Below are positions 1-12,455 of a stretch of 12,455 bases of DNA, piece after piece. A model generated the notes under the pieces. The model did not search any database. It was not told where the DNA came from and saw only the letters and a list, made by a program, of their open reading frames with translations. The position numbers were made by a program, and so were the translations under genes. How positions within the stretch are numbered: the stretch's first letter is position 1; every line of letters begins with the position of its first letter. The stretch comes from Abditibacteriaceae bacterium (GTDB taxonomy: Bacteria > Armatimonadota > Abditibacteriia > Abditibacteriales > Abditibacteriaceae): assembly GCA_031425655.1 (NCBI GenBank), contig JANPJS010000049.1, forward strand, positions 1 through 12,455. Direction: 5' to 3'.

Positions 1-72
1 ATTTCACAAAGAATTTGAAAGTTGCTTTGTGAAATCTTTGTGCCGGGTGCCCTCTGGGCGGATGTCTTTGTG
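1..72. repeat. Short CTTTGTG/CACAAAG repeat cluster with an 11-bp inverted repeat, downstream of nuoB (probably truncated by the window edge)
   Basis: ATTTCACAAAG (1-11) is the exact reverse complement of CTTTGTGAAAT (25-35). CTTTGTG recurs at 25-31, 36-42 and 66-72. Confidence 0.5.
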
Positions 73-73
73 G

Positions 74-730
74 TTAAAGCGAAATTTCGTCGGTCGTTTT
101 GCCGTTGCTTTTGACCAGAGCATCTAAAGTGCGCCGCGCGTCTTTGAGCGCCGGCGTTTGAATGGCAGTCGGCTTGGGAATGGATTCACCTTTGCCGCGC
201 CGCAGGCCTTCACTCTCGATTTTCTTATGCAACTGCAAAATACCCCAGATAAGTTGTTCGGGGCGCGGCGGGCAGCCGGGAACGTAAATATCAACCGGCA
301 CGATGCGGTCTACTCCCTGCACAATCGCGTAGTTGTTGAACACGCCGCCGCAACTGGCGCACGCGCCCATCGAAATCACCCATTTCGGCTCGGCCATCTG
401 GTCGTAAATCTGGCGCAGAACCGGCGCCATTTTCTGCGAAACCCGGCCTGCCACAATCATCAAATCGGCTTGGCGCGGGCTGGCGCGAAAAACTTCCGAA
501 CCAAAACGCGAAATATCGTATTTCGCGCCGACAGTCGCCATCATTTCAATCGCGCAGCAGGCAAGGCCGAAAGTCAGCGGGAAAAGTGAGCCTTTCCGCG
601 CCCAATTCACGACATCTTCGAGAACGCCCAATGCGATATGATCTTCGACATTTTGCGACGCTGGATTGGCGCCGGTCAGCGGGCCTTTTGGCTCCAGCGA
701 AATCACGTTCGGATGATTAACTATTCCCAT
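74..730 (-). CDS. nuoB: NADH-quinone oxidoreductase subunit B
   Basis: Motifs [37 protein letters not shown] and [13 protein letters not shown]. Start placed at ATG 730 (MGIVNHP), overlapping the nuoA W-E-stop by 10 nt, a common nuoA/nuoB junction. 218 aa. Confidence 0.96.
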
Positions 731-1086
731 TCCAAAGCACCTCTGCGCCACAAATAAACGTAGCCGACGACTAAAAAGCCCAAAAATACCATCATTTCCA
801 GCAAGCCGAACAAGCGTAATTGCTTGAACATCACGGCCCACGGATAGAGAAAAATCGCTTCGATGTCGAACAAAATGAACAACATCGCGATGATGTAGAA
901 CTTGACCGAAAAGCGCAGGCGCGCATCGCCGACGGGGTCAATGCCGCATTCGTAGGGTTGATTTTTCACCGCGCCGGGCCGGCTGGGGCCAAGCACGCTG
1001 GACAAAAACAGAAACGCCACGCCGACGACCAAGCCGACGACCAGCAGAACTAATAATGGAAATACGTTTCCCGTAGGATTCAGCAT
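721..1086 (-). CDS. nuoA: NADH-quinone oxidoreductase subunit A
   Basis: [31 protein letters not shown]-terminal GALEWE, three hydrophobic helices. ATG at 1086 is preceded by GAGAG. 121 aa. Confidence 0.96.
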
Positions 1087-1105
1087 GATTTTTCTCTCGT
1101 CAGGC

Positions 1106-1134
1106 AGTATAAAGGCTTGTGAAATTGCGCACAA
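1106..1134 (-). promoter_or_regulatory. Sigma70-type promoter of the nuo genes
   Basis: Minus strand TTGTGC (1134-1129), 17-nt spacer, TATACT (1111-1106), about 20 nt upstream of the nuoA ATG. Confidence 0.65.
1117..1134. promoter_or_regulatory. Rex (NADH/NAD+ sensor) operator-like site
   Basis: TTGTGAAATTGCGCACAA is TTGTG-N8-CACAA, close to the Rex consensus TTGTGAA-N4-TTCACAA. It overlaps the -35 and spacer of the nuoA promoter. Confidence 0.65.
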
Positions 1135-1176
1135 TGACTTACAACGGTATTTTCGGCACTAAAATGCTGACTTGAT

Positions 1177-1205
1177 TTGACAGAAGAGCGGCGGACGTTT
1201 AAAAT
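1177..1205 (+). promoter_or_regulatory. Near-consensus sigma70 promoter
   Basis: TTGACA (1177-1182), 17-nt spacer, TAAAAT (1200-1205). Divergent from the nuo promoter. Confidence 0.75.
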
Positions 1206-1635
1206 ATTACAGCGAAGTTACGACGACGTTGCGATGGGATTGCGAATCGGCGTTCGTCGAAAAAAGAGGGTTCTCTGCGCGCTGCCAACCGCAAGGTTAA
1301 GACAGTGTTAAATCAGCCGTTTTCGCAGAGTAAAGCTGCCGAAATGCTTCATCTTGGGCACCTTTTTAATTCTCGTGTGTGACTTCACAGCCTGAGATTT
1401 GCGGATGAAGGGAAGTGAGCGCAACAGCGATTCGTGCGCGAAGCGAACTTGGTAAGAACGGCATAGGAAACGTGGACACTGTGCTGCATCGCCAAATGAG
1501 TTTCAATCTCGAATCAAAGTTACGAACACTCAAGAGCATTGCGAATCGAAAGCCTTGAAATCATGCACCGGCGCCGCTTTTCCGTGCGAACATTGCCGTC
1601 ATCGTCACAAAACCGCACGAAAAGGGAGTAGTAAC

Positions 1636-2400
1636 ATGAACAAGACGTTCAAAGCCGCTTTGGCGGCAGCTTTGGTGTTCGGCAGCGCGCAAGTGGCGCA
1701 CGCCGACCTCAACCTCAGCGGCGCAGTCGGTCTGCCGCTCAACCCGACGGCGCAGATTCCAGACCCAGGTGGAGTCCGCTTGCAGGGCAACTACTACGAC
1801 GGCGGCGACGCCGGCGGTGGCAGCGCGAAAACCTACGGCATTTTTGCCGCGGGCCGCGTCGGAGAAAAGATCGAAGTCAGCGGTGGCATCAATCGCCTCG
1901 ACGGCGCCGGTGCCGGCATTGACAAGACAGGCTTTGCTCTTGGCGCGAAGTATTTGTTCACCAAAGAATCCGATCCGGCAGGCGTGCGCTTCGCAGTGGG
2001 CGCCGGCTACGACCGCGCTTTGTTGAAGAACTACCACGTCTATGCCGTGGCAACCAAATATCTTGGCTCCGTCAGCGGCGACAAGGTTCCGGTTGTGGGC
2101 CATCTCGGTCTGCGCTACGATCACTTCGGTTCGGTCGTTGACGACAGCAAAGTGTCGGTTTACGCCGGCGCCGAAGTGCCGCTCAGCCGCACTGGTGAGT
2201 TCCAGGTGATCGGAGAAATCCAGTCGAAGAATGTGACCGGCGGCAAAGTGCCGTATTCGGCATCGTTGCGTTATCGTCCGAAGGGCAAGCCTTTCGGCGT
2301 GACCGCCGGTTGGCAGCGTCATGGCGTTATCAGCGACGGCGGTTTCTTCGTGCAGCTTGGCTACACGTTCAACACCGGCTCCGATGCCGCTACGCCGTAA
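1636..2400 (+). CDS. Exported, probable outer-membrane beta-barrel protein (YjbH-like N-terminus)
   Basis: RBS AAGGGAG upstream of ATG 1636. Signal peptide MNKTFKAALAAALVFGSAQVAHA. LSGAVGLPLNPTA resembles the YjbH-type GxxGLxxxPTA start. Gly/aromatic alternating strands, with a last strand FFVQLGYTF. 254 aa. Confidence 0.7.
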   Translation: MNKTFKAALAAALVFGSAQVAHADLNLSGAVGLPLNPTAQIPDPGGVRLQGNYYDGGDAGGGSAKTYGIFAAGRVGEKIEVSGGINRLDGAGAGIDKTGFALGAKYLFTKESDPAGVRFAVGAGYDRALLKNYHVYAVATKYLGSVSGDKVPVVGHLGLRYDHFGSVVDDSKVSVYAGAEVPLSRTGEFQVIGEIQSKNVTGGKVPYSASLRYRPKGKPFGVTAGWQRHGVISDGGFFVQLGYTFNTGSDAATP

Positions 2401-2415
2401 GAGATGTTTGAGTTG

Positions 2416-2460
2416 AAAACAACAACGCCCCCGAAAATTTTTCGGGGGCGTTGTTGTTTT
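2416..2460. terminator. Bidirectional intrinsic terminator
   Basis: AAAACAACAACGCCCCCGAAAA-T-TTTTCGGGGGCGTTGTTGTTTT, a perfect palindrome with A/T tails between convergent genes. Confidence 0.9.
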
Positions 2461-2471
2461 TGCATTGAAAA

Positions 2472-3320
2472 TCAGCCGCGCGCGTGCGCATCGCCTTTGC
2501 GCCAATCGCTGCCGGAAGTGAAGCCGCCATCTACGTAAAGAATCTGGCCGGTGACGAAATTCGAGGCATTCGACGACAGAAAAATCAAAGCGCCGCCGAG
2601 TTCGGTTGGCTCGCCCCAGCGGCCCGCTGGCGTGCGATTGAGCACCCACGCATTGCGCTGATCTTCGCGCACCGGCTGCGTCATCGCCGTGTTGAAATAG
2701 CCGGGCGCGATGCCGTTGACCTGAATATTGTGGTCGGCCCATTCGACCGCCATCAGCTTGGTCAACTGGTTCATGCCGCCTTTGGCTGCTGAGTAGGGCA
2801 CAACGGTCGGCAAACCGAGAAACGAAGTCAGCGAGAGAATCGTGATGATCTTGCCGCTGCGTTGTGGCGCCATGACTTTGGCGCACTCGCGCGACAGAAA
2901 AAACGCGCCTTTCAAGTTGACATCAATGACCGCGTCCCAGTCGGCTTCGGAGATTTCCAGCGCGGGAATGCGCTTGTTGATGCCCGCGTTATTGAGCAAA
3001 ACGTCAATTTTCCCGAATTCCGTGACGACGGCGGGCACGGCTCTTTCAATATCGGCCACGCTGCCCACATCGGCGGCGAGCGATAAAATGCGCCGGCCCG
3101 TCGCGTCGGTAATGCGCTGGGCAACGTCGTCCAGCGTGTTTTGATCGCGGCCCAAAATCGCTAAATCGGCGCCGGCGCCGGCCAAAGCGAAGGCCATCGC
3201 TTCGCCCAGCCCGCGACTCGCGCCGCTGACGACGGCGACTTTGCCTTCTAACGAAAACTGTTTAATCGTATCTTGCGGCTGGTAATCGGGCAGCGGGGTG
3301 CCGGTTGTTTCGTGGTTCAT
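2472..3320 (-). CDS. SDR-family oxidoreductase, 2-deoxy-D-gluconate 3-dehydrogenase / gluconate 5-dehydrogenase-like
   Basis: SGASRGLG Rossmann motif, NNAG, catalytic YSAAK, NIQVNGIAPGYF, RTPAGRWG and VTGQILYVDGG, typical of the KduD/IdnO subgroup. Confidence 0.88.
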   Translation of the reverse strand: MNHETTGTPLPDYQPQDTIKQFSLEGKVAVVSGASRGLGEAMAFALAGAGADLAILGRDQNTLDDVAQRITDATGRRILSLAADVGSVADIERAVPAVVTEFGKIDVLLNNAGINKRIPALEISEADWDAVIDVNLKGAFFLSRECAKVMAPQRSGKIITILSLTSFLGLPTVVPYSAAKGGMNQLTKLMAVEWADHNIQVNGIAPGYFNTAMTQPVREDQRNAWVLNRTPAGRWGEPTELGGALIFLSSNASNFVTGQILYVDGGFTSGSDWRKGDAHARG

Positions 3321-3427
3321 AAAGACAAATTAACCACAGATGAGGCGTGTTGCACACCGCCGCAAGTTTGGCGCGGCTTTGTATATTAGATGAGGACGCA
3401 ATTTTATTGAATAGGGAGACAATCGCA

Positions 3428-4183
3428 ATGGCGATCAAAGTGACGGTCTGGGGCGAATTTCGCCACGAAAAGCGCAACGAAAAAGTGCGCGCAGTTTATC
3501 CCGAAGGAATGCACGAAGCCATCGCCGCCGGTTTGCGGCAGTTCGATGGGTTCGATGTGAAAACTGCGACATTAGATGAGCCGGAACACGGTTTAACCGA
3601 AGCAGTTTTGGCCGAAACCGACGTTCTGACGTGGTGGGGTCACATGGCGCACGGCGATGTGCAGGACGAAATCGTCAACCGCGTTCACAAGCGCGTGATG
3701 GAAGGCATGGGCCTGATCGTGCTGCATTCGGGCCATTTTTCCAAGATTTTCAAGAAACTGATGGGCACATCCTGCGACTTAAAATGGCGCGAAGCCGACG
3801 AAAAAGAGCGCCTGTGGGTATTGCAGCCCGGCCACCCGATTGCCGAAGGCATCGGCGAATATATCGAACTCGAAGCCGAAGAAATGTATGGCGAATTTTT
3901 CGATATTCCCCAGCCGGAGCAACTGATTTTCATGAGTTGGTTCGCGGGCGGCGAAGTTTTTCGCAGCGGCGCGACGTGGACACGCGGACTCGGCAAGATT
4001 TTCTATTTTCGTCCCGGCCACGAAACGTATCCGACGTATTTCAATCCGCAAATTCGCCGCGTCATCGCCAACGCCGCGCAATATGTGGCCCAGCCGGGCG
4101 GCGCGGCGCCCAAGTTCGGCAACGCCAAGCCGCTGGAAAAATTGGAAGCCTATAGCGGCGCACAGCCGGAAGGCTTTAAGTGA
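3428..4183 (+). CDS. thuA: Trehalose utilization protein ThuA family (class I glutamine amidotransferase-like fold)
   Basis: [60 protein letters not shown] and [22 protein letters not shown] before ATG 3428. 251 aa. Confidence 0.9.
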
Positions 4184-4211
4184 AGCCGCGCTCTAATTCG
4201 GCGCGAAGCAC

Positions 4212-4242
4212 GAAGGCCGCAAGAGATTTTCTTGCGGCCTTC
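4212..4242. terminator. Intergenic stem-loop (possible terminator or mRNA-stabilising hairpin)
   Basis: 13-bp arms GAAGGCCGCAAGA / TCTTGCGGCCTTC with a 5-nt loop, downstream of thuA. No strong U-tract. Confidence 0.55.
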
Positions 4243-4265
4243 TCCGGGTTGCCTCCGGTTATTTT

Positions 4266-5330
4266 ATGCGCTACCTCTTTCTAATTTTCGCTCTTTGTCT
4301 GAGCTTCGCTCCGGTTTTTGCCGCGCCCGAATTGCGTGTCGCCACGCGCGAAATAGCGCCGTTCGTAGTGCCGCAAGGCAGTCAATTAAGCGGATTCAGC
4401 ATTGATTTATGGAACGCCATCGCCGCCGAACTGAAGGTGCAAACTCGGTTCAGCATCAAGAAAAACGTCGGCGAATTGCTGGCGGCGGTGAAAAATGGGC
4501 AAGCCGATGCCTCGGTCGCGGCCATTTCGGTGACGGCCAAACGCGCCCGCGAAGTGGATTTTTCGCAGCCGATTTACGATTCGGGGCTGCAAATTCTGGT
4601 GCGCGGCAAAGCCAGCACGCCTTCGCTGTGGGATGGCCTGATGCAGCTTTTGCGCTCGCCGATTATGGTTCAATTTGTCATCGCGGTGGCGTTGCTGATT
4701 CTGATTCCGGCGCATTTGCTGTGGTTTATCGAGCGCCATTCCAACGACGGCATTATTCGCCACGATACTTACTTTCCGGGCATTTTTGAGGCGGTTTGGT
4801 GGACGGTTTCGTGTCTGGCCACGCAAGCCGAGGAAATGCCGAAAACCGTCTGGGCGCGCATTTTGGCCGTAATCTGGATGTTTTTCGCGGTCATTTTCAT
4901 CGCTTACGTCACGGCGGCGCTGACGGCCAATCTGACGATGCAAAGTTTGCGCGGCGACATTCACGGGCCGGACGATTTGCCGGGCAAAAATGTGGCGACG
5001 GTCGCCGGCTCGACTTCGGCGGAATATCTGGGCGAGCGGAAAATTCGTGCCCAAAGCTTTGCTTCGGCAGACGAAGCGATTGGCGCTCTGGAAAAAGGTG
5101 AAGTCGCTGCCGTGGTTTACGATTCGCCGATTTTGCTGTATTACGCGGCCAATAAAGGGCAGGGAAACGTCGCGGTCGTCGGCGCAGTGTTTCGGCGCGA
5201 AAGTTACGCCATCGCGTTTCCCAACGGCTCACGCTGGCGTAAATCGGTCAACTTTGCGCTGCTTTCGCTCAGAGAAAACGGCGTCTACGACCAAATCCGC
5301 GAAAAATGGTTCGGCTCCGAAGGCGATTAA
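4266..5330 (+). CDS. Prokaryotic ionotropic glutamate receptor-like channel (split amino-acid-binding domain plus M1-pore-M2)
   Basis: Signal peptide, then S1 (IAPF, GFSIDLW, AISVTAKR, DFSQP), TM helix and LLWFIERH, pore helix FEAVWWTVSCLAT, PKT..ARILAVIWMF TM helix, and S2 (VAGSTS, VYDSP, YAIAFP, KWFG). Same topology as GluR0. Confidence 0.85.
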   Translation: MRYLFLIFALCLSFAPVFAAPELRVATREIAPFVVPQGSQLSGFSIDLWNAIAAELKVQTRFSIKKNVGELLAAVKNGQADASVAAISVTAKRAREVDFSQPIYDSGLQILVRGKASTPSLWDGLMQLLRSPIMVQFVIAVALLILIPAHLLWFIERHSNDGIIRHDTYFPGIFEAVWWTVSCLATQAEEMPKTVWARILAVIWMFFAVIFIAYVTAALTANLTMQSLRGDIHGPDDLPGKNVATVAGSTSAEYLGERKIRAQSFASADEAIGALEKGEVAAVVYDSPILLYYAANKGQGNVAVVGAVFRRESYAIAFPNGSRWRKSVNFALLSLRENGVYDQIREKWFGSEGD

Positions 5331-5366
5331 TGGCTCACCTTACGCTGTAGGATGTGATAGGCCAAA

Positions 5367-5524
5367 AGAGCGGCTTCGCCGCTCGTGGAAACCCCCAACC
5401 CCCTTGGTAAGGGGGCAAAACTGGGGCGCTACTGCATAAGCCAAGCTGGATTTTTCCCAAAGCGTAAGAACATAGCCCCCTTACCAAGGGGGTTGGGGGT
5501 TTCCACGAGCGGCGAAGCCGCTCT
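5367..5524. repeat. REPIN/MITE-like element: perfect 50-bp inverted repeats around a 58-bp spacer
   Basis: 5367-5416 AGAGCGGCTTCGCCGCTCGTGGAAACCCCCAACCCCCTTGGTAAGGGGGC is the exact reverse complement of 5475-5524. Each arm holds two internal palindromes. Confidence 0.9.
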
Positions 5525-5595
5525 GCACACTGCTTGCTATAAGTCCGCCGTGTGAGGAACTAATTTGGGTGCCCCTACATCGCCGGCGCCGCGCG

Positions 5596-5604
5596 TGATA
5601 CAAT
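5596..5604 (+). promoter_or_regulatory. Extended -10 promoter for mod
   Basis: TG-A-TACAAT ends 10 nt before the mod ATG. No SD sequence, implying a very short leader. Confidence 0.5.
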
Positions 5605-5614
5605 AACGCGCATT

Positions 5615-7492
5615 ATGGCACCTCCGATTTGGAACAAAGAAAACCCGCATCCGCTGTCGCAGCGCAAAACCGAACTGATTTGGGAAGGCAAATACGACGA
5701 ATACGGCAACCGCCGCGCGGTCGCGGTTCCCGGTAGCCCGCCGCCGATGCAGCGCATCGAAACCATTGACGCGCCGCGCGATTTGGCCAAAGCGCAGGGC
5801 GCCTTGTTCGAGCCGGAAATCAGCCACCGCGACGACTTTCGCAATCGCCTGCTGTGGGGCGACAACAAACTGATTCTCAATGCTCTGCGCGCCGAATTCG
5901 CGGGCCGCGTCAACCTGATTTATATTGATCCGCCCTTCGATGTCGGCGCCGATTTCACGCTCAATATCGAACTGGGCGACGGCGAAGGTGAAATCCACAA
6001 AGAGCAATCGTTGCTCGAAGCCGTCGCCTACCGCGATATGTGGGGCAAAGGCACCGATTCGTATCTGCACATGATGTATGAGCGGCTGACTCTGATGAAA
6101 GATTTGTTAGCCGAAAATGGGAGTATTTATGTGCATTGTAATCAAACCATGCTGGCTCTGTTGCGCGGGATTATGGATGAAGTCTTCGGGCAAAATAACC
6201 ATATGAACGACATAATTTGGCACTTTGAAAATAAGCCTAAATTTAGCTTTTCTAAAATGCAGCCACGAGATTGGGAATACATCATCGTTTACGCAAAATC
6301 TATCGGACGGCACACATTTCAGCATCAGGTCATTCCCGTAAAAGCCGTGCAACAACAAGCAGTTGTTGCATGGGATCCAATCGCGAAAAAACGCATAGCT
6401 AAACGCGATGATAGTGGTGATATTATCTACGAAACGAGAACCGAAAAGTTAATGGGCAGCGTATGGACTGTTCCTATTGTTCATCCCGTTGGATACGAAA
6501 GAACAGATTACGCCACCCAAAAACCCGAAGCTCTCCTCGAACGTGTTCTCAAAGCCTCGTCCAACGAAGGCGATTTAGTTCTCGATTGTTTTGGCGGCAG
6601 CGGCACGACGGCGGCGGTGGCGGAGAAACTGGGGCGACGCTGGATCACCTGCGATCTGGGGCGTTATGCGATTCACACGGCGCGCAAGCGTCTCATCGGC
6701 GTGCAGCGCGAATTGCACGACGCCGGCAAGCCGTATCGCTCCTTCGATGTCTTCAATCTCGGTCGCTACGAGCGCCAATGGTGGCAGCAGGAACGCCTCA
6801 AAGGCCACGATAAAGAGCATCGCCGCGTCGTCCTCGAATTTTTCAAAGCCGCGCCGCTTGCCAATCCGCCGTCGCCGCTTTTGCACGCTACGAAGGGCAA
6901 AGCCTACGTTTCGGTGGACGGCATTGACGGCGTTCTCACCTTCGCCGAACTCAACGAAATCGCGCGCGATGCGGCATCGGTCGGCGCGCCGGAAATCATT
7001 TGTCTGGCGTGGGAATTCGAGATGAATCTCAAACTGCGCGCGAAGGAATTGGAAGCCCTTCTCGGCTTGAAAATCGGCCTCAAATACATTCCGCGCGAAA
7101 TCATGGAAGCCAATCGCACGACGGTTCAATTCTTCGACGCGGCGGCATTGGAAGCCAAAGCCATTATCAAAGGCAAAACCGCCGACGTGGAACTGCTCTC
7201 GTTTTATCCGGCCCTCACCGAAGTTCCCGACAAAGAATTAACGGCCTTGCAGGAGCGCGCCATCAAAAGCCCGTTCGACTTCATAGACTTCTGGGCCATA
7301 GATTTCGAGCACAACGCCGACAAGCCCTTCGAGCATCACTGGCAAGACTTCCGCACCCGCAAAAACCGCAGTTTGAAGACGAAATCCGACGCCGCTTACG
7401 AGTATTCCGGCAAAGGCGCCAAGCAAATTTGCGTCAAGGTCATAGACGTTTTCGGTGTTGATACTTCGATTGTGATTGATGTTAAAGTTTAA
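5615..7492 (+). CDS. mod: Type III restriction-modification DNA methyltransferase (Mod), beta-class amino-MTase
   Basis: NRLLWGDN, catalytic [30 protein letters not shown]-binding [16 protein letters not shown]. Long C-terminal extension ending VKVIDVFG. Lies upstream of a Res gene. Confidence 0.92.
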
Positions 7493-7497
7493 GAACT

Positions 7498-8631
7498 ATG
7501 AAATTGCGAGGAAAAGAAGAACCGAAAGTTAAATTAAGTCAGCCTCTGCCAATTCGGAAAAAGTGGGAAGAGTGGAAAAGTAAAAAGAGCGCGCCCGAAG
7601 CCAACTCTCTGCCCGCAGTTAGCGCGGCGATTCTTTCTTACGCCGCGCCGCTTGGAGCAGCATTAACAAAAGTTTATTTGCCGGAATTGGCGGAGCCGCA
7701 GGCGTTGCTACTTTTTGCTACGCCCTTCGCGGTTTATCTGGAAAAAACTTGGAGCAAGCGGCGTGAAACTGAAGCGAAAGACCGCGAAAGCGAAGCGAAA
7801 AAGCGACGCATTCAACAGGATGATTTCTGGAACGAATACATCGCTCATATTTCAGATGTGGTGGCAAACCGCGTAGGAGAAGATTTTAAAAACTACCTCG
7901 ACACAGTAGGAGAAGCTGTGGCCTTACGCGGCTCTGCCAGTTCTTATACACGCGAAGAAGCCCGGAAAGCACAGAAATTGACGCTGCGAAATATTTGCGC
8001 GGCTGTTGCGATTTATTACAAAGAAGGCGATGACGAGCGCAAACAAAAATTTAACGCCAGTCTGATGCTCCCCGAAGACTATGAGTTATGGCTCACGGCG
8101 CCCGGCGGAAAATTCAAAGAAGCGGTGCGCTTTTTCGATCCCCGGCGCGATGTGGATGCCTGCACCAAAATGTTGCACTTGACGTGCTGGGCACGCGAAC
8201 CACAAGGCTGGAAACCCTTTGTTTTGGCGGTTGACGGCGACGCCGATTACGTGTTGCCCGGCGCGCCGCGTGCCTACGCCACGCGCAAACTGCAAGTCGT
8301 CGCCGACACCAAAGCTGTAGATGTAATGGAAAAAGAGATGATCGAACACGCCAAAATCGCTAAAAGACAGCTTCGCAATTATTTCGAGGAGAACGAAGAC
8401 AGATTTCGCAGTTTCTTTTCCGTGCCTCTGATTCTCAATGAGCGCATCGTAGGAATTCTCAACGTGCAGTCGAAAGAAACTCACATTTTAGGCGCCAACA
8501 ACGAACACCAAAAAGATTTGGAATTGTCTTTGCTCCCATTTTGCGCTTTATTGGTGTCGCTGATTACCCGCGAAGAAAGCGTCCAATCGCAAGATGAAGA
8601 AAGCGTCCAATCGCAAAACACCGATGGATAA
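7498..8631 (+). CDS. Hypothetical protein with hydrophobic N-terminal segments, a charged helical linker and a C-terminal GAF-like domain
   Basis: 377-aa ORF starting 5 nt after the mod stop. Hydrophobic stretches AVSAAILSYAAPLGAALTKVYL and ALLLFATPFAVYL. GAPRAYATRKLQVVADT...FRSFFSVPLILNERIVGILNVQS matches the GAF-fold pattern. Confidence 0.7.
   Translation: MKLRGKEEPKVKLSQPLPIRKKWEEWKSKKSAPEANSLPAVSAAILSYAAPLGAALTKVYLPELAEPQALLLFATPFAVYLEKTWSKRRETEAKDRESEAKKRRIQQDDFWNEYIAHISDVVANRVGEDFKNYLDTVGEAVALRGSASSYTREEARKAQKLTLRNICAAVAIYYKEGDDERKQKFNASLMLPEDYELWLTAPGGKFKEAVRFFDPRRDVDACTKMLHLTCWAREPQGWKPFVLAVDGDADYVLPGAPRAYATRKLQVVADTKAVDVMEKEMIEHAKIAKRQLRNYFEENEDRFRSFFSVPLILNERIVGILNVQSKETHILGANNEHQKDLELSLLPFCALLVSLITREESVQSQDEESVQSQNTDG
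8572..8616 (+). repeat. 21-bp direct repeat with 24-nt period, in frame
   Basis: GAAGAAAGCGTCCAATCGCAA at 8572-8592 and 8596-8616, encoding EESVQSQ-D-EESVQSQ. Confidence 0.9.
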
Positions 8632-8650
8632 ACCTTTGCATCTTGCACGC

Positions 8651-8679
8651 TTGCCAAAGCGTCAGGCTTGGCAGATAAT
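8651..8679 (+). promoter_or_regulatory. Internal sigma70-like promoter for the small ORF
   Basis: TTGCCA (8651-8656), 17-nt spacer, GATAAT (8674-8679). Overlaps an imperfect inverted repeat TGCCAA...TTGGCA. Confidence 0.5.
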
Positions 8680-8700
8680 TTAAGCAACGAACGGAGGGCT

Positions 8701-8886
8701 ATGCAGTTCAAAACCAACCAAGACGCCCAAATCAAGGACGCACAAACCAAAGGAAAACCGAGCGTCAGCGAAGGACGCCAAAAACCCGATGCGGAAGCGA
8801 CCGAGCGTTTGCAGCGCTACATCGAATCTTCCGAACGGTTTCAACGAAGTGTTCACAACGGAGAAACCAAAACCAAACGCCCCTAA
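8701..8886 (+). CDS. Small hydrophilic hypothetical protein (61 aa)
   Basis: GGAGG at 8693-8697 just before ATG 8701 (short spacing). Fills the intergenic gap co-directionally and is flanked by a promoter-like sequence and a terminator. Confidence 0.6.
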   Translation: MQFKTNQDAQIKDAQTKGKPSVSEGRQKPDAEATERLQRYIESSERFQRSVHNGETKTKRP

Positions 8887-8918
8887 ACCAGCGGCCACGA
8901 CTTGCTAAATCACCGAAA

Positions 8919-8955
8919 ATAAAAGCGCAGCACGAATTTCGTGCTGCGCTTTTAT
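8919..8955. terminator. Intrinsic terminator-like hairpin directly upstream of res
   Basis: ATAAAAGCGCAGCACGAA-T-TTCGTGCTGCGCTTTTAT, 18-bp arms with A/T tails. Ends 14 nt before the res ATG. Confidence 0.8.
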
Positions 8956-8969
8956 AGTTTCCTTTTCTT

Positions 8970-11900
8970 ATGCTCAACATTCCCATTCTCAACCAAAGCG
9001 GCCTCGAACCGATTTTTCTGCCCTGGCAGGAACCCGACAAGCATCGTCGTCCGAATCCGACTTCGGGCGGCGCGGCGATCATTGAAATGGGGCGGCGCAC
9101 TTCCAAAGCCCTTCTGGTGCCGCGCATTCGCTACGCAGTGGACGATTGGCGGCGCGGCGATTATGCCGGTGTCAGCGACACCACGCGCACGCTTCTCGAT
9201 CACTGGTTTCGCGGTGAGCATCCAAACGGCTTTCGCTATCACTTTTGCCAGCGCGAAGCGATTGAAACTTTCATCTGGCTTTACGAAGTAGCGCAATACC
9301 GCGATTTAAGCTCGATTTATTCCTCGCTGTGGGGCGAAGACGCCGACCCGTTATACGAAAAGCAAATTACAGCCGCCGATGATGCGTGGCCGCGCGGCGT
9401 GGCGAAAATCGCAACCGGCGGCGGCAAAACCAAAGTGATGAGTTTGGTAATGGTGTGGAGCTATTTTCACAAACGCTTCGAGCCAAATTCCGAAATGGCG
9501 ACGCATTTTGTCGCCATCGCGCCGAATCTAATCGTTTTCGAGCGCCTCAAAGACGATTTTTTAGCCAAAGACGGACGCCCTTCGATTTTTCACAGCGACC
9601 CGCTTTTGCCGCCCGAATGGGCCGGCGATTGGGACGTGCCGGTGGTTTTGCAGGACGATCCCGGTGGCGCCAGCGGAGCGGGCGCGCTTTATCTCACCAA
9701 CATTCACAGACTTTACGAACGAAAAAAGAAAGAAAAAGAAGAATCAAGCGAAAATATCACCGGCCCGGCCGTCAAAAAAGCCAAAGCGCTTTCGACGGGC
9801 GAACAATTGCGGGCGCGCATCGCATCGCACCCAAATTTTCTGGTTCTCAACGACGAAGCGCATCATTTGCACGACCCCGAATCGGCGTGGAACGAAGCCA
9901 TCGTTTCGCTTGATGCCGATTCCAAAGTGCGCGGCAATAATGGCCTCGCGGCGCAGTTCGACTTCACGGCCACGCCGAAATATCCCGACGGCACGCTGTT
10001 CAAGCACATCGTCTGCGATTTTCCCCTCGGCGAAGCGGTAGATTCCGGCATCGTCAAAGCGCCGGTTTTGGGCCGCTCGGACGCACTAAAAACTACCAAA
10101 CTCGATAACGCCGCGCAAAAGTTTCGCGCGCATTTGATGCTGGGATATAAGCAATACGAATGGTCGGTCGAAGAATGGAAAGACAGCAATTTTAAGCCGA
10201 TTTTGTTCGTGATGACCGAAAGCACGCAAGCCGCCGACGAAGTGACGGAAGCTCTTAATAGTGACGATTATCCACTGCTCAAGGGCAGCGTCATCAACCT
10301 GCACACCAAACTCAAGGGCAAAATCGTCAAGGGCGAATTCGTCGTCAACGAAAAGCAAATGTCCGATGACGATTTAAAAGCCGTGCGCGAACTGGCGTCA
10401 GATTTAGATAAGCCCGATTCGCCGTATCGCTGCGTGGTTTCGGTCTTGATGCTGCGCGAAGGCTGGGATGTAAAAAGCGTGACCACGATTGTGCCTCTGC
10501 GCGCTTTCACCGGCCAATCGAACATTTTGGCCGAGCAAACTCTGGGGCGCGGCTTGCGGCGCATGGCGCCTATCGGAATGGGCGGCGCGCCGGAGCGCGT
10601 TACCGTAGTTGAGCATTCGTCGTTTGTCAAACTTTACGAGCAGGAATTGGCGCTTGAAGGCGTGATTGTGCAGATCAGCGACGCCGAAAAGAAAGCCAAA
10701 CCGCCTTCGGCCTCAATTTTCGTTGACCCGCACAAAAACGCCGCCGATTTAGATATTTCCTATCCGCGCATTTCCGATGGCGTGCAAACCATTCCTACGG
10801 TTGAAAACCTCACGTTAGACGAAGTGCGCGCTTATTTTCAAGCGCGTTATGCGCCTTTGCCAATCGGCAGCGCCTCCAAAAAACCGATTGATTTTGAATT
10901 GCGCGCCTTGTTCACCGATGAAGTGGTCGCCTCGTGGAAAATTGATCGCGGTTTGCTGCGCATGGGTTTTACCGCCGTCAGCGTCTTTGTTAAAGAACTG
11001 GAAAAAGCCTGCGGCCTGACCGGAAACCACACCAAATTAGCGCCTTTAGTGCAACAATTCATCGAGCAGGTGCTGTTTGAGCATCCGGTGAATTTATACG
11101 GCGGCGAAGTAGATCATCGCATGAGCAACACCGACGTGGCCGAGCACATTCGTGCCGCGTTCACGCAACTCATCCGCGAGCGCACTATCACCGAAATCCG
11201 GCGTGAACGCGGCGAAGACGTGCTGAGCATTTCCGATTGGAAGCCGTTTCAAGCCGCCAATCTGCCGCCGAAAAAATTGTGCGTGACGGCGACCAAAACG
11301 CTGTTCAACTTGGTGCCGTGCGATTTGGACTTGGAAAAGCAGTTCACGCAGTTTTGCGACGGCGCCGAAGATGTCATCGCGTTCGCCAAAAACGCCGGGC
11401 CGCAAAAAATCGCCATTGATTACAAAGCCGCCAATGGCCGTCCGGCGCTTTACGTCCCCGATTTTTTAGTGCGCGACGACGCGGGCAAGCATTATTTAGC
11501 CGAAACCAAAGGCCAGCAGGATGCCAATGTTCCGCTGAAAGCGAGTGCCGCCGTCGCGTGGTGCAAAGCCGCCTCGAAGCGCGGCCAAAAATGGGATTAT
11601 CTTTTCGTGCCCCAAGCGGTTTTTGAGGAAAGCGCCGACGAAAACATGGCGGAATTAGCCCGCGCCTGCATTCCTTCGCTGAAACACGTTCTCGACAAGC
11701 TCAAAACCGAGCAAATGGAATTGCCGCTCGAAGCAACGCCCGAAGAAATTAAAGAAGAGCGACTGGAAAAGGCGTTGGAAAGCGCGGGTGGGGCCGATTT
11801 GCCCGAAGACGTGCGCCTTTACGTGACGCAAGCCGTGAACCAACTCGCCTACGACCGCAAAAAGAATTATCCGCAGTTCGGCGGCGCCTTTCAGCCGCTG

Positions 11901-12368
11901 CTTTATCCGCTGGAAGCTTTGTGCGGCGAAATTCTACATCGCACTTTAGCAGCGCGCGTGCCCTCGCATCGCGGCGATGCCGATTATTATTTCCAGCCGG
12001 ATTTGAGCGATTTATCCATCCCGCAGGAAAGCGTTTTCGCCAAAAACGGGCGTTATTTACGCAAGAATCTGGTTTACGGTCAAAACAACAATCGCATCGG
12101 CGTTTTGCTGTTTTGCCTGGAACACGCCGTTAAAGGCAAGCCTGAACTTGGCGGCATCTGGCAGGACGTGCGCGAGGTTTTTGGCACCGATGAGTTTCGC
12201 GCGCTTTATCCGCTGCTCAATTCGATGAACACATTTCGCAACCGCCATGTAGCGCACGTTGATGACCCGCTCAACGACGGCGAAGCAGCGGACGCGGCCA
12301 TGAACCAGTGGATTAATGGCTTGGCGGAATTGTGCCGTTTAGCGAGTGCTTGCAGCAGTCGTGCTTAA
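8970..12368 (+). CDS. res: Type III restriction enzyme Res subunit (SF2 helicase-like ATPase plus PD-(D/E)xK nuclease) with an additional C-terminal HEPN-like domain
   Basis: CQREAIET, Walker A IATGGGKT, Walker B NDEAHH, FTATP, MLREGWDV, EQTLGRGLR and nuclease YVPDFLV...LAETKG. About 220 extra C-terminal residues contain FRNRHVAH. Confidence 0.92.
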   Translation: MLNIPILNQSGLEPIFLPWQEPDKHRRPNPTSGGAAIIEMGRRTSKALLVPRIRYAVDDWRRGDYAGVSDTTRTLLDHWFRGEHPNGFRYHFCQREAIETFIWLYEVAQYRDLSSIYSSLWGEDADPLYEKQITAADDAWPRGVAKIATGGGKTKVMSLVMVWSYFHKRFEPNSEMATHFVAIAPNLIVFERLKDDFLAKDGRPSIFHSDPLLPPEWAGDWDVPVVLQDDPGGASGAGALYLTNIHRLYERKKKEKEESSENITGPAVKKAKALSTGEQLRARIASHPNFLVLNDEAHHLHDPESAWNEAIVSLDADSKVRGNNGLAAQFDFTATPKYPDGTLFKHIVCDFPLGEAVDSGIVKAPVLGRSDALKTTKLDNAAQKFRAHLMLGYKQYEWSVEEWKDSNFKPILFVMTESTQAADEVTEALNSDDYPLLKGSVINLHTKLKGKIVKGEFVVNEKQMSDDDLKAVRELASDLDKPDSPYRCVVSVLMLREGWDVKSVTTIVPLRAFTGQSNILAEQTLGRGLRRMAPIGMGGAPERVTVVEHSSFVKLYEQELALEGVIVQISDAEKKAKPPSASIFVDPHKNAADLDISYPRISDGVQTIPTVENLTLDEVRAYFQARYAPLPIGSASKKPIDFELRALFTDEVVASWKIDRGLLRMGFTAVSVFVKELEKACGLTGNHTKLAPLVQQFIEQVLFEHPVNLYGGEVDHRMSNTDVAEHIRAAFTQLIRERTITEIRRERGEDVLSISDWKPFQAANLPPKKLCVTATKTLFNLVPCDLDLEKQFTQFCDGAEDVIAFAKNAGPQKIAIDYKAANGRPALYVPDFLVRDDAGKHYLAETKGQQDANVPLKASAAVAWCKAASKRGQKWDYLFVPQAVFEESADENMAELARACIPSLKHVLDKLKTEQMELPLEATPEEIKEERLEKALESAGGADLPEDVRLYVTQAVNQLAYDRKKNYPQFGGAFQPLLYPLEALCGEILHRTLAARVPSHRGDADYYFQPDLSDLSIPQESVFAKNGRYLRKNLVYGQNNNRIGVLLFCLEHAVKGKPELGGIWQDVREVFGTDEFRALYPLLNSMNTFRNRHVAHVDDPLNDGEAADAAMNQWINGLAELCRLASACSSRA

Positions 12369-12455
12369 ATCCAGATGCCCGGCGGGGCAATCTGCGCCGT
12401 CACGCCGCCTTCTGAAAGCTGAAAGTGAAATTGGTCATGGGAAGTTTTAAATGGA
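12365..12455 (-). CDS. Possible 3' end of a convergent gene (partial)
   Basis: A minus-strand frame is open from the window edge (PFKTSHDQFHFQLSEGGVTAQIAPPGIWI*), and its TAA overlaps the res TAA in TTAA. Too short to verify. Confidence 0.3.
   Translation of the reverse strand, partial: PFKTSHDQFHFQLSEGGVTAQIAPPGIWI

Follow-up and report, generated by a model that had tools for sequence, protein, structure and literature searches.

What does a Type III restriction enzyme do with a further 200 residues of helix behind its DNA-cutting domain? The question is raised by a stretch of 12,455 nucleotides (contig JANPJS010000049.1, positions 1 to 12,455, assembly GCA_031425655.1; hereafter the window) from an Abditibacteriaceae bacterium of the phylum Armatimonadota, which encodes both subunits of a restriction-modification (R-M) system belonging to Type III. 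In such systems the Mod subunit methylates self DNA and the Res subunit cuts unmethylated DNA, a cleavage that calls for two sites in inverse orientation. An initial annotation, made from the letters alone, had proposed that Res carries a HEPN-like ribonuclease (RNase) domain fused behind its nuclease domain. On balance, we favour the reading that this is a two-gene Type III system with a catalytically intact HEPN endoribonuclease at the C-terminus of Res.

The codons at 12237-12257 specify R1090-N-R-H-V-A-H1096, preceded by F1089 and with R-x5-H spacing; this motif and its coordinates, the upstream PLEAL helix and the charged linker named in the initial annotation are all borne out by the sequence. 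Homologues were collected without use of the domain itself, by a search with Res residues 400-900 only, which returned 4272 hits, of which the best 120 were used. The HEPN-like domain is present in 119 of these 120, and the sole exception (P0269) departs from the frame around residue 766. All 119 domain-bearing homologues have R1090, H1096 and an acid (D or E) at position 982, and position 1091 is N in 112, so that the conservation check suggested for R1090, N1091 and H1096 came out positively. HEPN motifs have a polar residue (N, D or H) after the arginine, as do these 112. In the remaining seven (the P0007-P0014 group) RG replaces RN behind the invariant R, a natural variant of the polar position. 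Of 200 columns in the 119 homologues, no charged or polar one other than R1090 and H1096 is invariant; R1092 and H1093, inside the motif, are not conserved. R1090, H1096 and D/E982 are also kept in 208 of 208 full-length proteins, a set that overlaps the unbiased one and was partly selected on the domain. In a fragment-rich set (161 rows, without P0097, a repeat artefact) the R is kept in 154 of 155, the H in 150 of 153 and the acid in 107 of 107. In a 104-row full-length alignment the domain has a mean identity of 36% (minimum 16%), the helicase 61% and the nuclease 58%, and four of 200 domain columns are invariant (P998, L1030, R1090 and H1096). A chance motif or a lone read-through was rejected on the grounds of this clade-wide conservation.

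The roughly 220 helical residues expected past the nuclease are recovered in an AlphaFold model of residues 901-1132, which is all-helical (mean predicted local distance difference test, pLDDT, 92.7; predicted template modelling score, pTM, 0.85; 29 sequences), with pLDDT ~60 on the linker side (model residues 1-20). DSSP puts R1090 within the final turns of helix 1074-1095 and H1096 just beyond, followed by one long helix; E982 lies in helix 971-996, and in the model a helical insert separates this helix from the motif helix. The HEPN layout given in the accessible text of PMC3710099 places the motif where helix 3 ends and in the loop to helix 4, the acid in helix 2, and an insert between helices 2 and 3. 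The DSSP pattern of the model has this all-alpha, four-helix up-down layout with its insert.

A structural search of 48,161 solved chains returned RnlA first (Z 9.6, 141 aligned residues, root mean square deviation 3.0), RnlA R255A second (Z 8.9) and LsoA fourth (Z 8.2). The top 50 rows also contain Csm6 (two entries), AF0298, 1wwp, the sacsin HEPN and 3c8g, and HEPN RNases account for five of the eight rows with at least 135 residues aligned. RnlA was again first in a second structural search (Z 9.5). The nearest named clusters in an Atlas language-model feature search are RnlA/RNase LS, Csm6 and DUF4145 HEPN (0.89-0.78; 0.91 in another run), where scores of 0.91 and below are leads on the tool's own scale. 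Among Foldseek rows from BFVD, the one of highest probability (0.85; template modelling score 0.38; E 0.5, not significant) is an RNase LS-like protein.

Several results weigh against this reading. In the single sequence the motif is at chance level, as Rx4-6H arises in 66% and R[NDH]x3-5H in 14% of 20,000 shuffles of residues 925-1125. The Ex3[KR] pattern around the acid, typical of HEPN domains though not universal, is absent: position 986 is G, L, K, I or Q, with K in 14 of 104 rows. A Z of 9.6 is moderate, since for helical bundles values below about 13 may reflect a common arrangement, and the third structural row is a non-HEPN chain (Z 8.3, 87 residues aligned). With the domain model, neither PDB nor BFVD yielded a Foldseek match at E <= 0.001. 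Pfam HEPN_AbiU2 appeared in only two of 57 members, at E 0.053, with no other Pfam HEPN link among them; a profile compared with single-sequence RnlA by hhalign gave a probability of 0.1%; and profile and sequence searches of PDB gave nothing significant, the HepS-H105A row standing at E 1.7 with the RN aligned to HepS R100. The aligned range, 924-1124 on RnlA 203-357, arithmetically fits an equivalence of E982, R1090 and H1096 with E258, R318 and H323, as judged from the range ends only; these three RnlA residues were shown to be essential, according to the accessible text of PMC8266594. RnlA R255, three positions before E258, has no conserved counterpart, position 979 being G in 37, E in 19, Y in 13 and R in 9 of 104 rows, with the correspondence drawn by spacing.

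With both sides weighed, the domain very probably has a HEPN fold. The HEPN-like call of the initial annotation is moderately supported: conservation and the structural and feature searches speak for it, and the Foldseek and sequence-profile tests were negative. Among solved structures the nearest relatives are RnlA and LsoA, and not PrrC/RloC or Cas13, which the initial annotation had named as HEPN examples. Like these RNase LS proteins (PF19034, PF18869), the domain has the fold over ~140 residues, an Rx4-6H motif near the C-terminus and an upstream acid. It differs from them in having R-x5-H and not R-x4-H, in lacking an R255 equivalent and TBP-like domains, in showing no sequence-level match (Pfam, 57 members), in having no RnlB-like antitoxin gene, and in being fused to a restriction subunit. 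Because there is neither a sequence-level link to RnlA nor a counterpart of R255, we do not count it as a member of RNase LS and regard it as a new HEPN family resembling RNase LS. A PF19034 search of 151 genomes gave no match, but control genomes gave none either.

The rest of Res has the make-up of a Type III enzyme. The full-length model (pLDDT 85.4) has EcoP15I Res (4zcf_C) as its top Foldseek match (E 8.7e-10), and the hallmarks of a Type III Res, namely Walker A, a DExH Walker B and a C-terminal PD-(D/E)xK, are all present, with weak Pfam RE_endonuc and NCBIfam TnsA-like matches in the deoxyribonuclease (DNase) region. By its residues, the HEPN-like domain is an addition to Res and not a substitute for its DNase, because the DNase and ATPase residues are equally conserved beside it. 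Replacement of the DNase by the new domain was rejected, as the DNase residues are intact. Sister Res from related genomes and plasmids (31-37% identity) stop 5-12 residues past the nuclease in nine near-complete cases (L003, L004, L006-L012), and no match to the domain was found elsewhere in their loci, where flanks were mostly ~1.5 kb. The initial annotation was thus right that the domain sits behind an intact nuclease and is absent from ordinary Res. Because sister Res end directly after the nuclease, the HEPN-like domain is a clade-wide add-on to Type III Res, found in several phyla.

Named members of the clade come from cyanobacteria (Thermosynechococcus, Thermoleptolyngbya, Kovacikia and Prochlorothrix), Armatimonadota, Chloroflexota, Planctomycetota, Hydrogenedentes and Agrobacterium, and include a thermophilic cultured organism, Thermosynechococcus vestitus (BAC09032.1 / WP_011057320.1). 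The spread is patchy, with 15 of 401 genomes in the phylum of the window and none of the 26 others in its family. In a quick tree of the Res core all 32 domain-bearing rows fall on one side of a branch, which has weak support (71), and the tree has two long branches. Domain distances track helicase-core distances (Spearman 0.86). This pattern would fit a single ancient fusion passed on as a unit. No relative of the domain was found on viral contigs in two scans. The domain search found no second copy in the genome of the window, which also holds a second, distant Res-like open reading frame (ORF) at G000:C66:43516-45318 (1034-aa frame).

A stand-alone family of the domain was considered and rejected, since the short hits are mostly pieces of Res or lie at contig ends, which is not proven for all. 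Two proteins are single cases of the domain leaving Res, both with RN-x4-H intact: in P0066 it occupies residues 462-647 of 656, behind a non-Res N-terminus without a Pfam match, and in P0064 residues 120-298 of 302, behind DUF7662. An Agrobacterium pusense protein of 636 aa (P0263, WP_279872837.1), present on 15 contigs, has lost much of the helicase and keeps the nuclease and HEPN motifs. One more distant Res (L015:4054-4473, + strand) carries a different tail of 140 aa past the nuclease, without a Pfam match. By eye this tail is reminiscent of a LexA/S24-type domain. The position behind the Res nuclease may serve as a place for attaching extra domains.

The neighbourhood survey covered 49 loci, the window included; 26 have a whole res ORF, three have no domain ORF under the filter, and many contigs are short. 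A mod gene was detected upstream of res in 23 of the 26 and lies within 62 bp of it in 18; the mod-before-res order that is a Type III hallmark is found in the window as well (Table 1). Apart from mod, no neighbour family occurs in more than two of the 49 loci, many of them short, and no RnlB-type antitoxin gene was found beside res in the same survey. Because no other neighbour family recurs in more than two loci, the conserved unit is mod plus res, with no dedicated antitoxin gene. Unrelated genes are inserted at the mod-res junction in five of the 23 loci, the window among them; the others are L046:6588-7196, L048:6747-7211, L059 and L077:1985-3112, the last a 375-aa Macro-domain protein (Pfam E 6e-14). 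The GAF gene of the window, whose product has a hydrophobic N-terminal stretch and a short C-terminal repeat (EESVQSQ, twice), has no counterpart in the other 48 loci and is not a conserved part of the system. The small ORF next to it has no family match in Pfam, PADLOC or NCBIfam and no match in the other loci. Either of them as an antitoxin was rejected, as neither is found in other loci. Three single loci have features of their own: a HerA/DUF87 ATPase gene directly upstream of mod (L047:10477-12327), a metallo-beta-lactamase-fold gene in the same position (L045:11028-11915), and mod and res each broken into two ORFs with the HEPN motif intact (L044:5151-10583).

Table 1. Features of the Type III system in the window, with residue numbers of Res where given
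Feature	Coordinates	Strand	Evidence
mod: Type III DNA methyltransferase, 625 aa, DPPF and FGGSG motifs	5615..7492	+	PADLOC MTase_III, E 7e-244 over 5-623; Pfam N6_N4_Mtase
GAF gene between mod and res, 377 aa	7498..8631	+	Pfam GAF_2, E 1.6e-4, under cut-off
Small ORF between GAF gene and res, ~61 aa from ATG 8701	8701..8886	+	ORF list
res: Type III restriction subunit, 1132 aa; superfamily 2 (SF2) helicase-like ATPase, PD-(D/E)xK nuclease and HEPN-like domain	8970..12368	+	Pfam ResIII; PADLOC REase_III; Foldseek
Walker A, ATGGGKT, residues 148-154	9411..9431	+	K153 and T154 in 119/119 rows with the residue
Walker B, DEAH, residues 295-298	9852..9863	+	Kept in 120/120
PD-(D/E)xK DNase domain, ~residues 770-900: E789, D831, E845, K847	11277..11669	+	D831 in 119/120; E845 and K847 in 119/119
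Linker, residues 914-924, conserved Q-x-x-L-P-L; EQMELPLEATPEEIKEE starts ~11709	11709..11741	+	Alignment; model confidence lower
HEPN-like helical domain, ~residues 925-1125, RnlA/LsoA-like by fold	11742..12365	+	AlphaFold model; structural and feature searches
E982, conserved acid in long helix 971-996 (PLEAL helix)	11913..11915	+	D/E in 119/119 and 208/208
R1090-N-x4-H1096 motif, end of helix 1074-1095 and start of next loop	12237..12257	+	R and H in 119/119 and 208/208; DSSP

Compared with EcoP15I (Mod2Res1), the system is alike in its mod-res order, in the beta-class-type methyltransferase motifs and in having an SF2 ATPase followed by a PD-(D/E)xK nuclease. The structural alignment has only 13% identity, and EcoP15I is without the 200-residue C-terminal helical domain seen here. 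The nearest named Res family is the BPTD_3080 family restriction endonuclease (NCBIfam NF046055, E 1.7e-90), which Res matches with a score of 304, far below the cut-off of 800; plasmid members match only to ~residue 850-885, at 25-30% identity. The likeness to PrrC with EcoprrI (Type Ic) is that of a HEPN nuclease tied to R-M as a second line, described in the accessible text of PMC3710099. PrrC stands beside its Type I system as a protein of its own (ABC-NTPase-HEPN), whereas the present domain is within the Type III restriction polypeptide. DUF4145-HEPN domains on Type I restriction subunits and the HEPN-DUF499 ATPase of BREX-related systems also put a HEPN on the restriction side, with a predicted role as back-up suicide RNase (PMC3506569, PMC3710099 and PMC12839542, as far as their text is accessible). 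These belong to other HEPN families and R-M types, the HEPN of the DUF499 systems being N-terminal on an accessory ATPase, and the present domain has no Pfam DUF4145 match.

Given the conservation of its motif residues, the HEPN active site of Res is likely functional, and we lean towards a role of the domain as a second-line RNase defence of the dormancy type. As a first line, judged here from motifs and gene order, Mod would mark self DNA and Res would cleave unmethylated DNA at its PD-(D/E)xK site. As a second line, the HEPN domain would cleave RNA, either messenger RNA (mRNA) as RnlA/LsoA do or transfer RNA (tRNA), and translation would stall in the infected cell. HEPN RNases as a class act independently of metal. 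The RNase would be kept off in the lone complex, where it would be monomeric or mis-paired, and would turn on once the enzyme enters a state in which two Res are joined. HEPN RNases need two motifs paired in a dimer (accessible text of PMC8266594 and PMC13043305), and in the Type III enzymes characterised so far each complex contains a single Res, and cleavage follows when two complexes meet (accessible text of PMC8259958). The RNase is thus most likely off until two Res join, because HEPN sites span a dimer, each complex has one Res and there is no antitoxin gene.

Candidate triggers would be two complexes meeting on foreign DNA, complexes lingering after cleavage, or the jamming of complexes by an anti-restriction protein of a phage. 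The accessible parts of two papers bear on the latter two: a Type III enzyme remains bound after cleavage (PMC3874151), and jamming by anti-restriction proteins is the PrrC-like model proposed for HEPNs linked to R-M (PMC3710099). An RNase firing at each successful restriction would be costly, which counts against the favoured reading and disfavours the simplest collision trigger. It is conceivable, though doubtful, that the RNase site forms solely if two Res meet or stay together on unmethylated foreign DNA, in which case the self/non-self test by methylation would directly gate the RNase without an antitoxin, a sensor domain or a second messenger.

Three other explanations of the domain have to be weighed. 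The HEPN fold could be a structural or dimerisation module that pairs Res or binds nucleic acid to aid DNA cleavage, with R and H as interface or binding residues and no cutting of RNA. HEPN domains do dimerise via the R/H motif, and for Type III cleavage two Res have to come together; moreover, a domain kept in nearly the whole clade (119 of the best 120 of 4272), with distances that follow the helicase core, is unlike a rapidly swapped toxin, no antitoxin was found, and non-catalytic HEPN domains are on record in the accessible text of PMC3710099. Such non-catalytic domains are described as losing the motif, however, whereas no polar residues of the present domain are better conserved than R, N, H and the upstream acid. 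Because sister Res are without the domain, the basic reaction of the wider family does not depend on it. We consider a purely structural role unlikely.

An active nuclease might instead be aimed locally at the invader, cutting phage or plasmid transcripts, DNA ends or RNA-DNA hybrids near the bound complex, with no dormancy or death. The fusion would tether the domain to the DNA under restriction and such action would spare the cost of suicide after a successful restriction; the nearest folds, RnlA and LsoA, are mRNases mainly directed against viral mRNA (accessible text of PMC3710099). Yet most HEPN RNases for which data exist are toxins that are non-selective or directed at tRNA, and the model has none of RnlA's substrate-binding partner domains (TBP-like or RNase H), which makes local action quite unlikely. 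As for an unrelated helical bundle, for instance a protein-interaction or DNA-gripping extension whose RnlA match reflects a common four-helix arrangement, it would account for the lack of any significant Foldseek or sequence-profile match, for a Z under the caution level for helical bundles and for a motif that arises by chance in single sequences. It sits poorly with an RNase LS-type HEPN ranking first or with highest probability by three methods (structural search, Atlas features and BFVD Foldseek), with the HEPN majority among the longest structural alignments, and with the invariant R and H falling at HEPN positions, and we judge it improbable. The reading we retain is a catalytic HEPN RNase serving as a second line behind restriction.

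Fusions of HEPN to REase-fold DNases and superfamily II helicases, and DUF4145 on Type I subunits, are a published theme (PMC3710099, PMC3632139), and HEPN-type toxin domains are said to be part of many R-M systems of Types I and III (PMC3506569), all in the accessible text of these papers. Literature searches, including PMC11090510 and three preprints, returned no description of a HEPN at the C-terminus of a Type III Res in the text accessible; the full architecture lists of PMC3710099 may include it. No model in Pfam, PADLOC or NCBIfam matches residues ~925-1125. The fusion is real, clade-wide and without an existing domain model, and HEPN-restriction fusions are already known as a theme.

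Since 2012-2013 gene fusions have prompted the prediction that restriction is coupled to a nuclease causing dormancy or suicide, for which PrrC supplies most of the experimental base. The clade described here holds both nuclease sites in one chain, each strictly conserved, and the domain-less sisters are natural controls. The unmodelled HEPN family sits in proteins annotated just as 'DEAD/DEAH box helicase' or 'type III restriction enzyme', and, hidden in this way, may bear on the transformation of cyanobacteria. If the favoured reading is true, one polypeptide would link DNA restriction to dormancy at the level of RNA.

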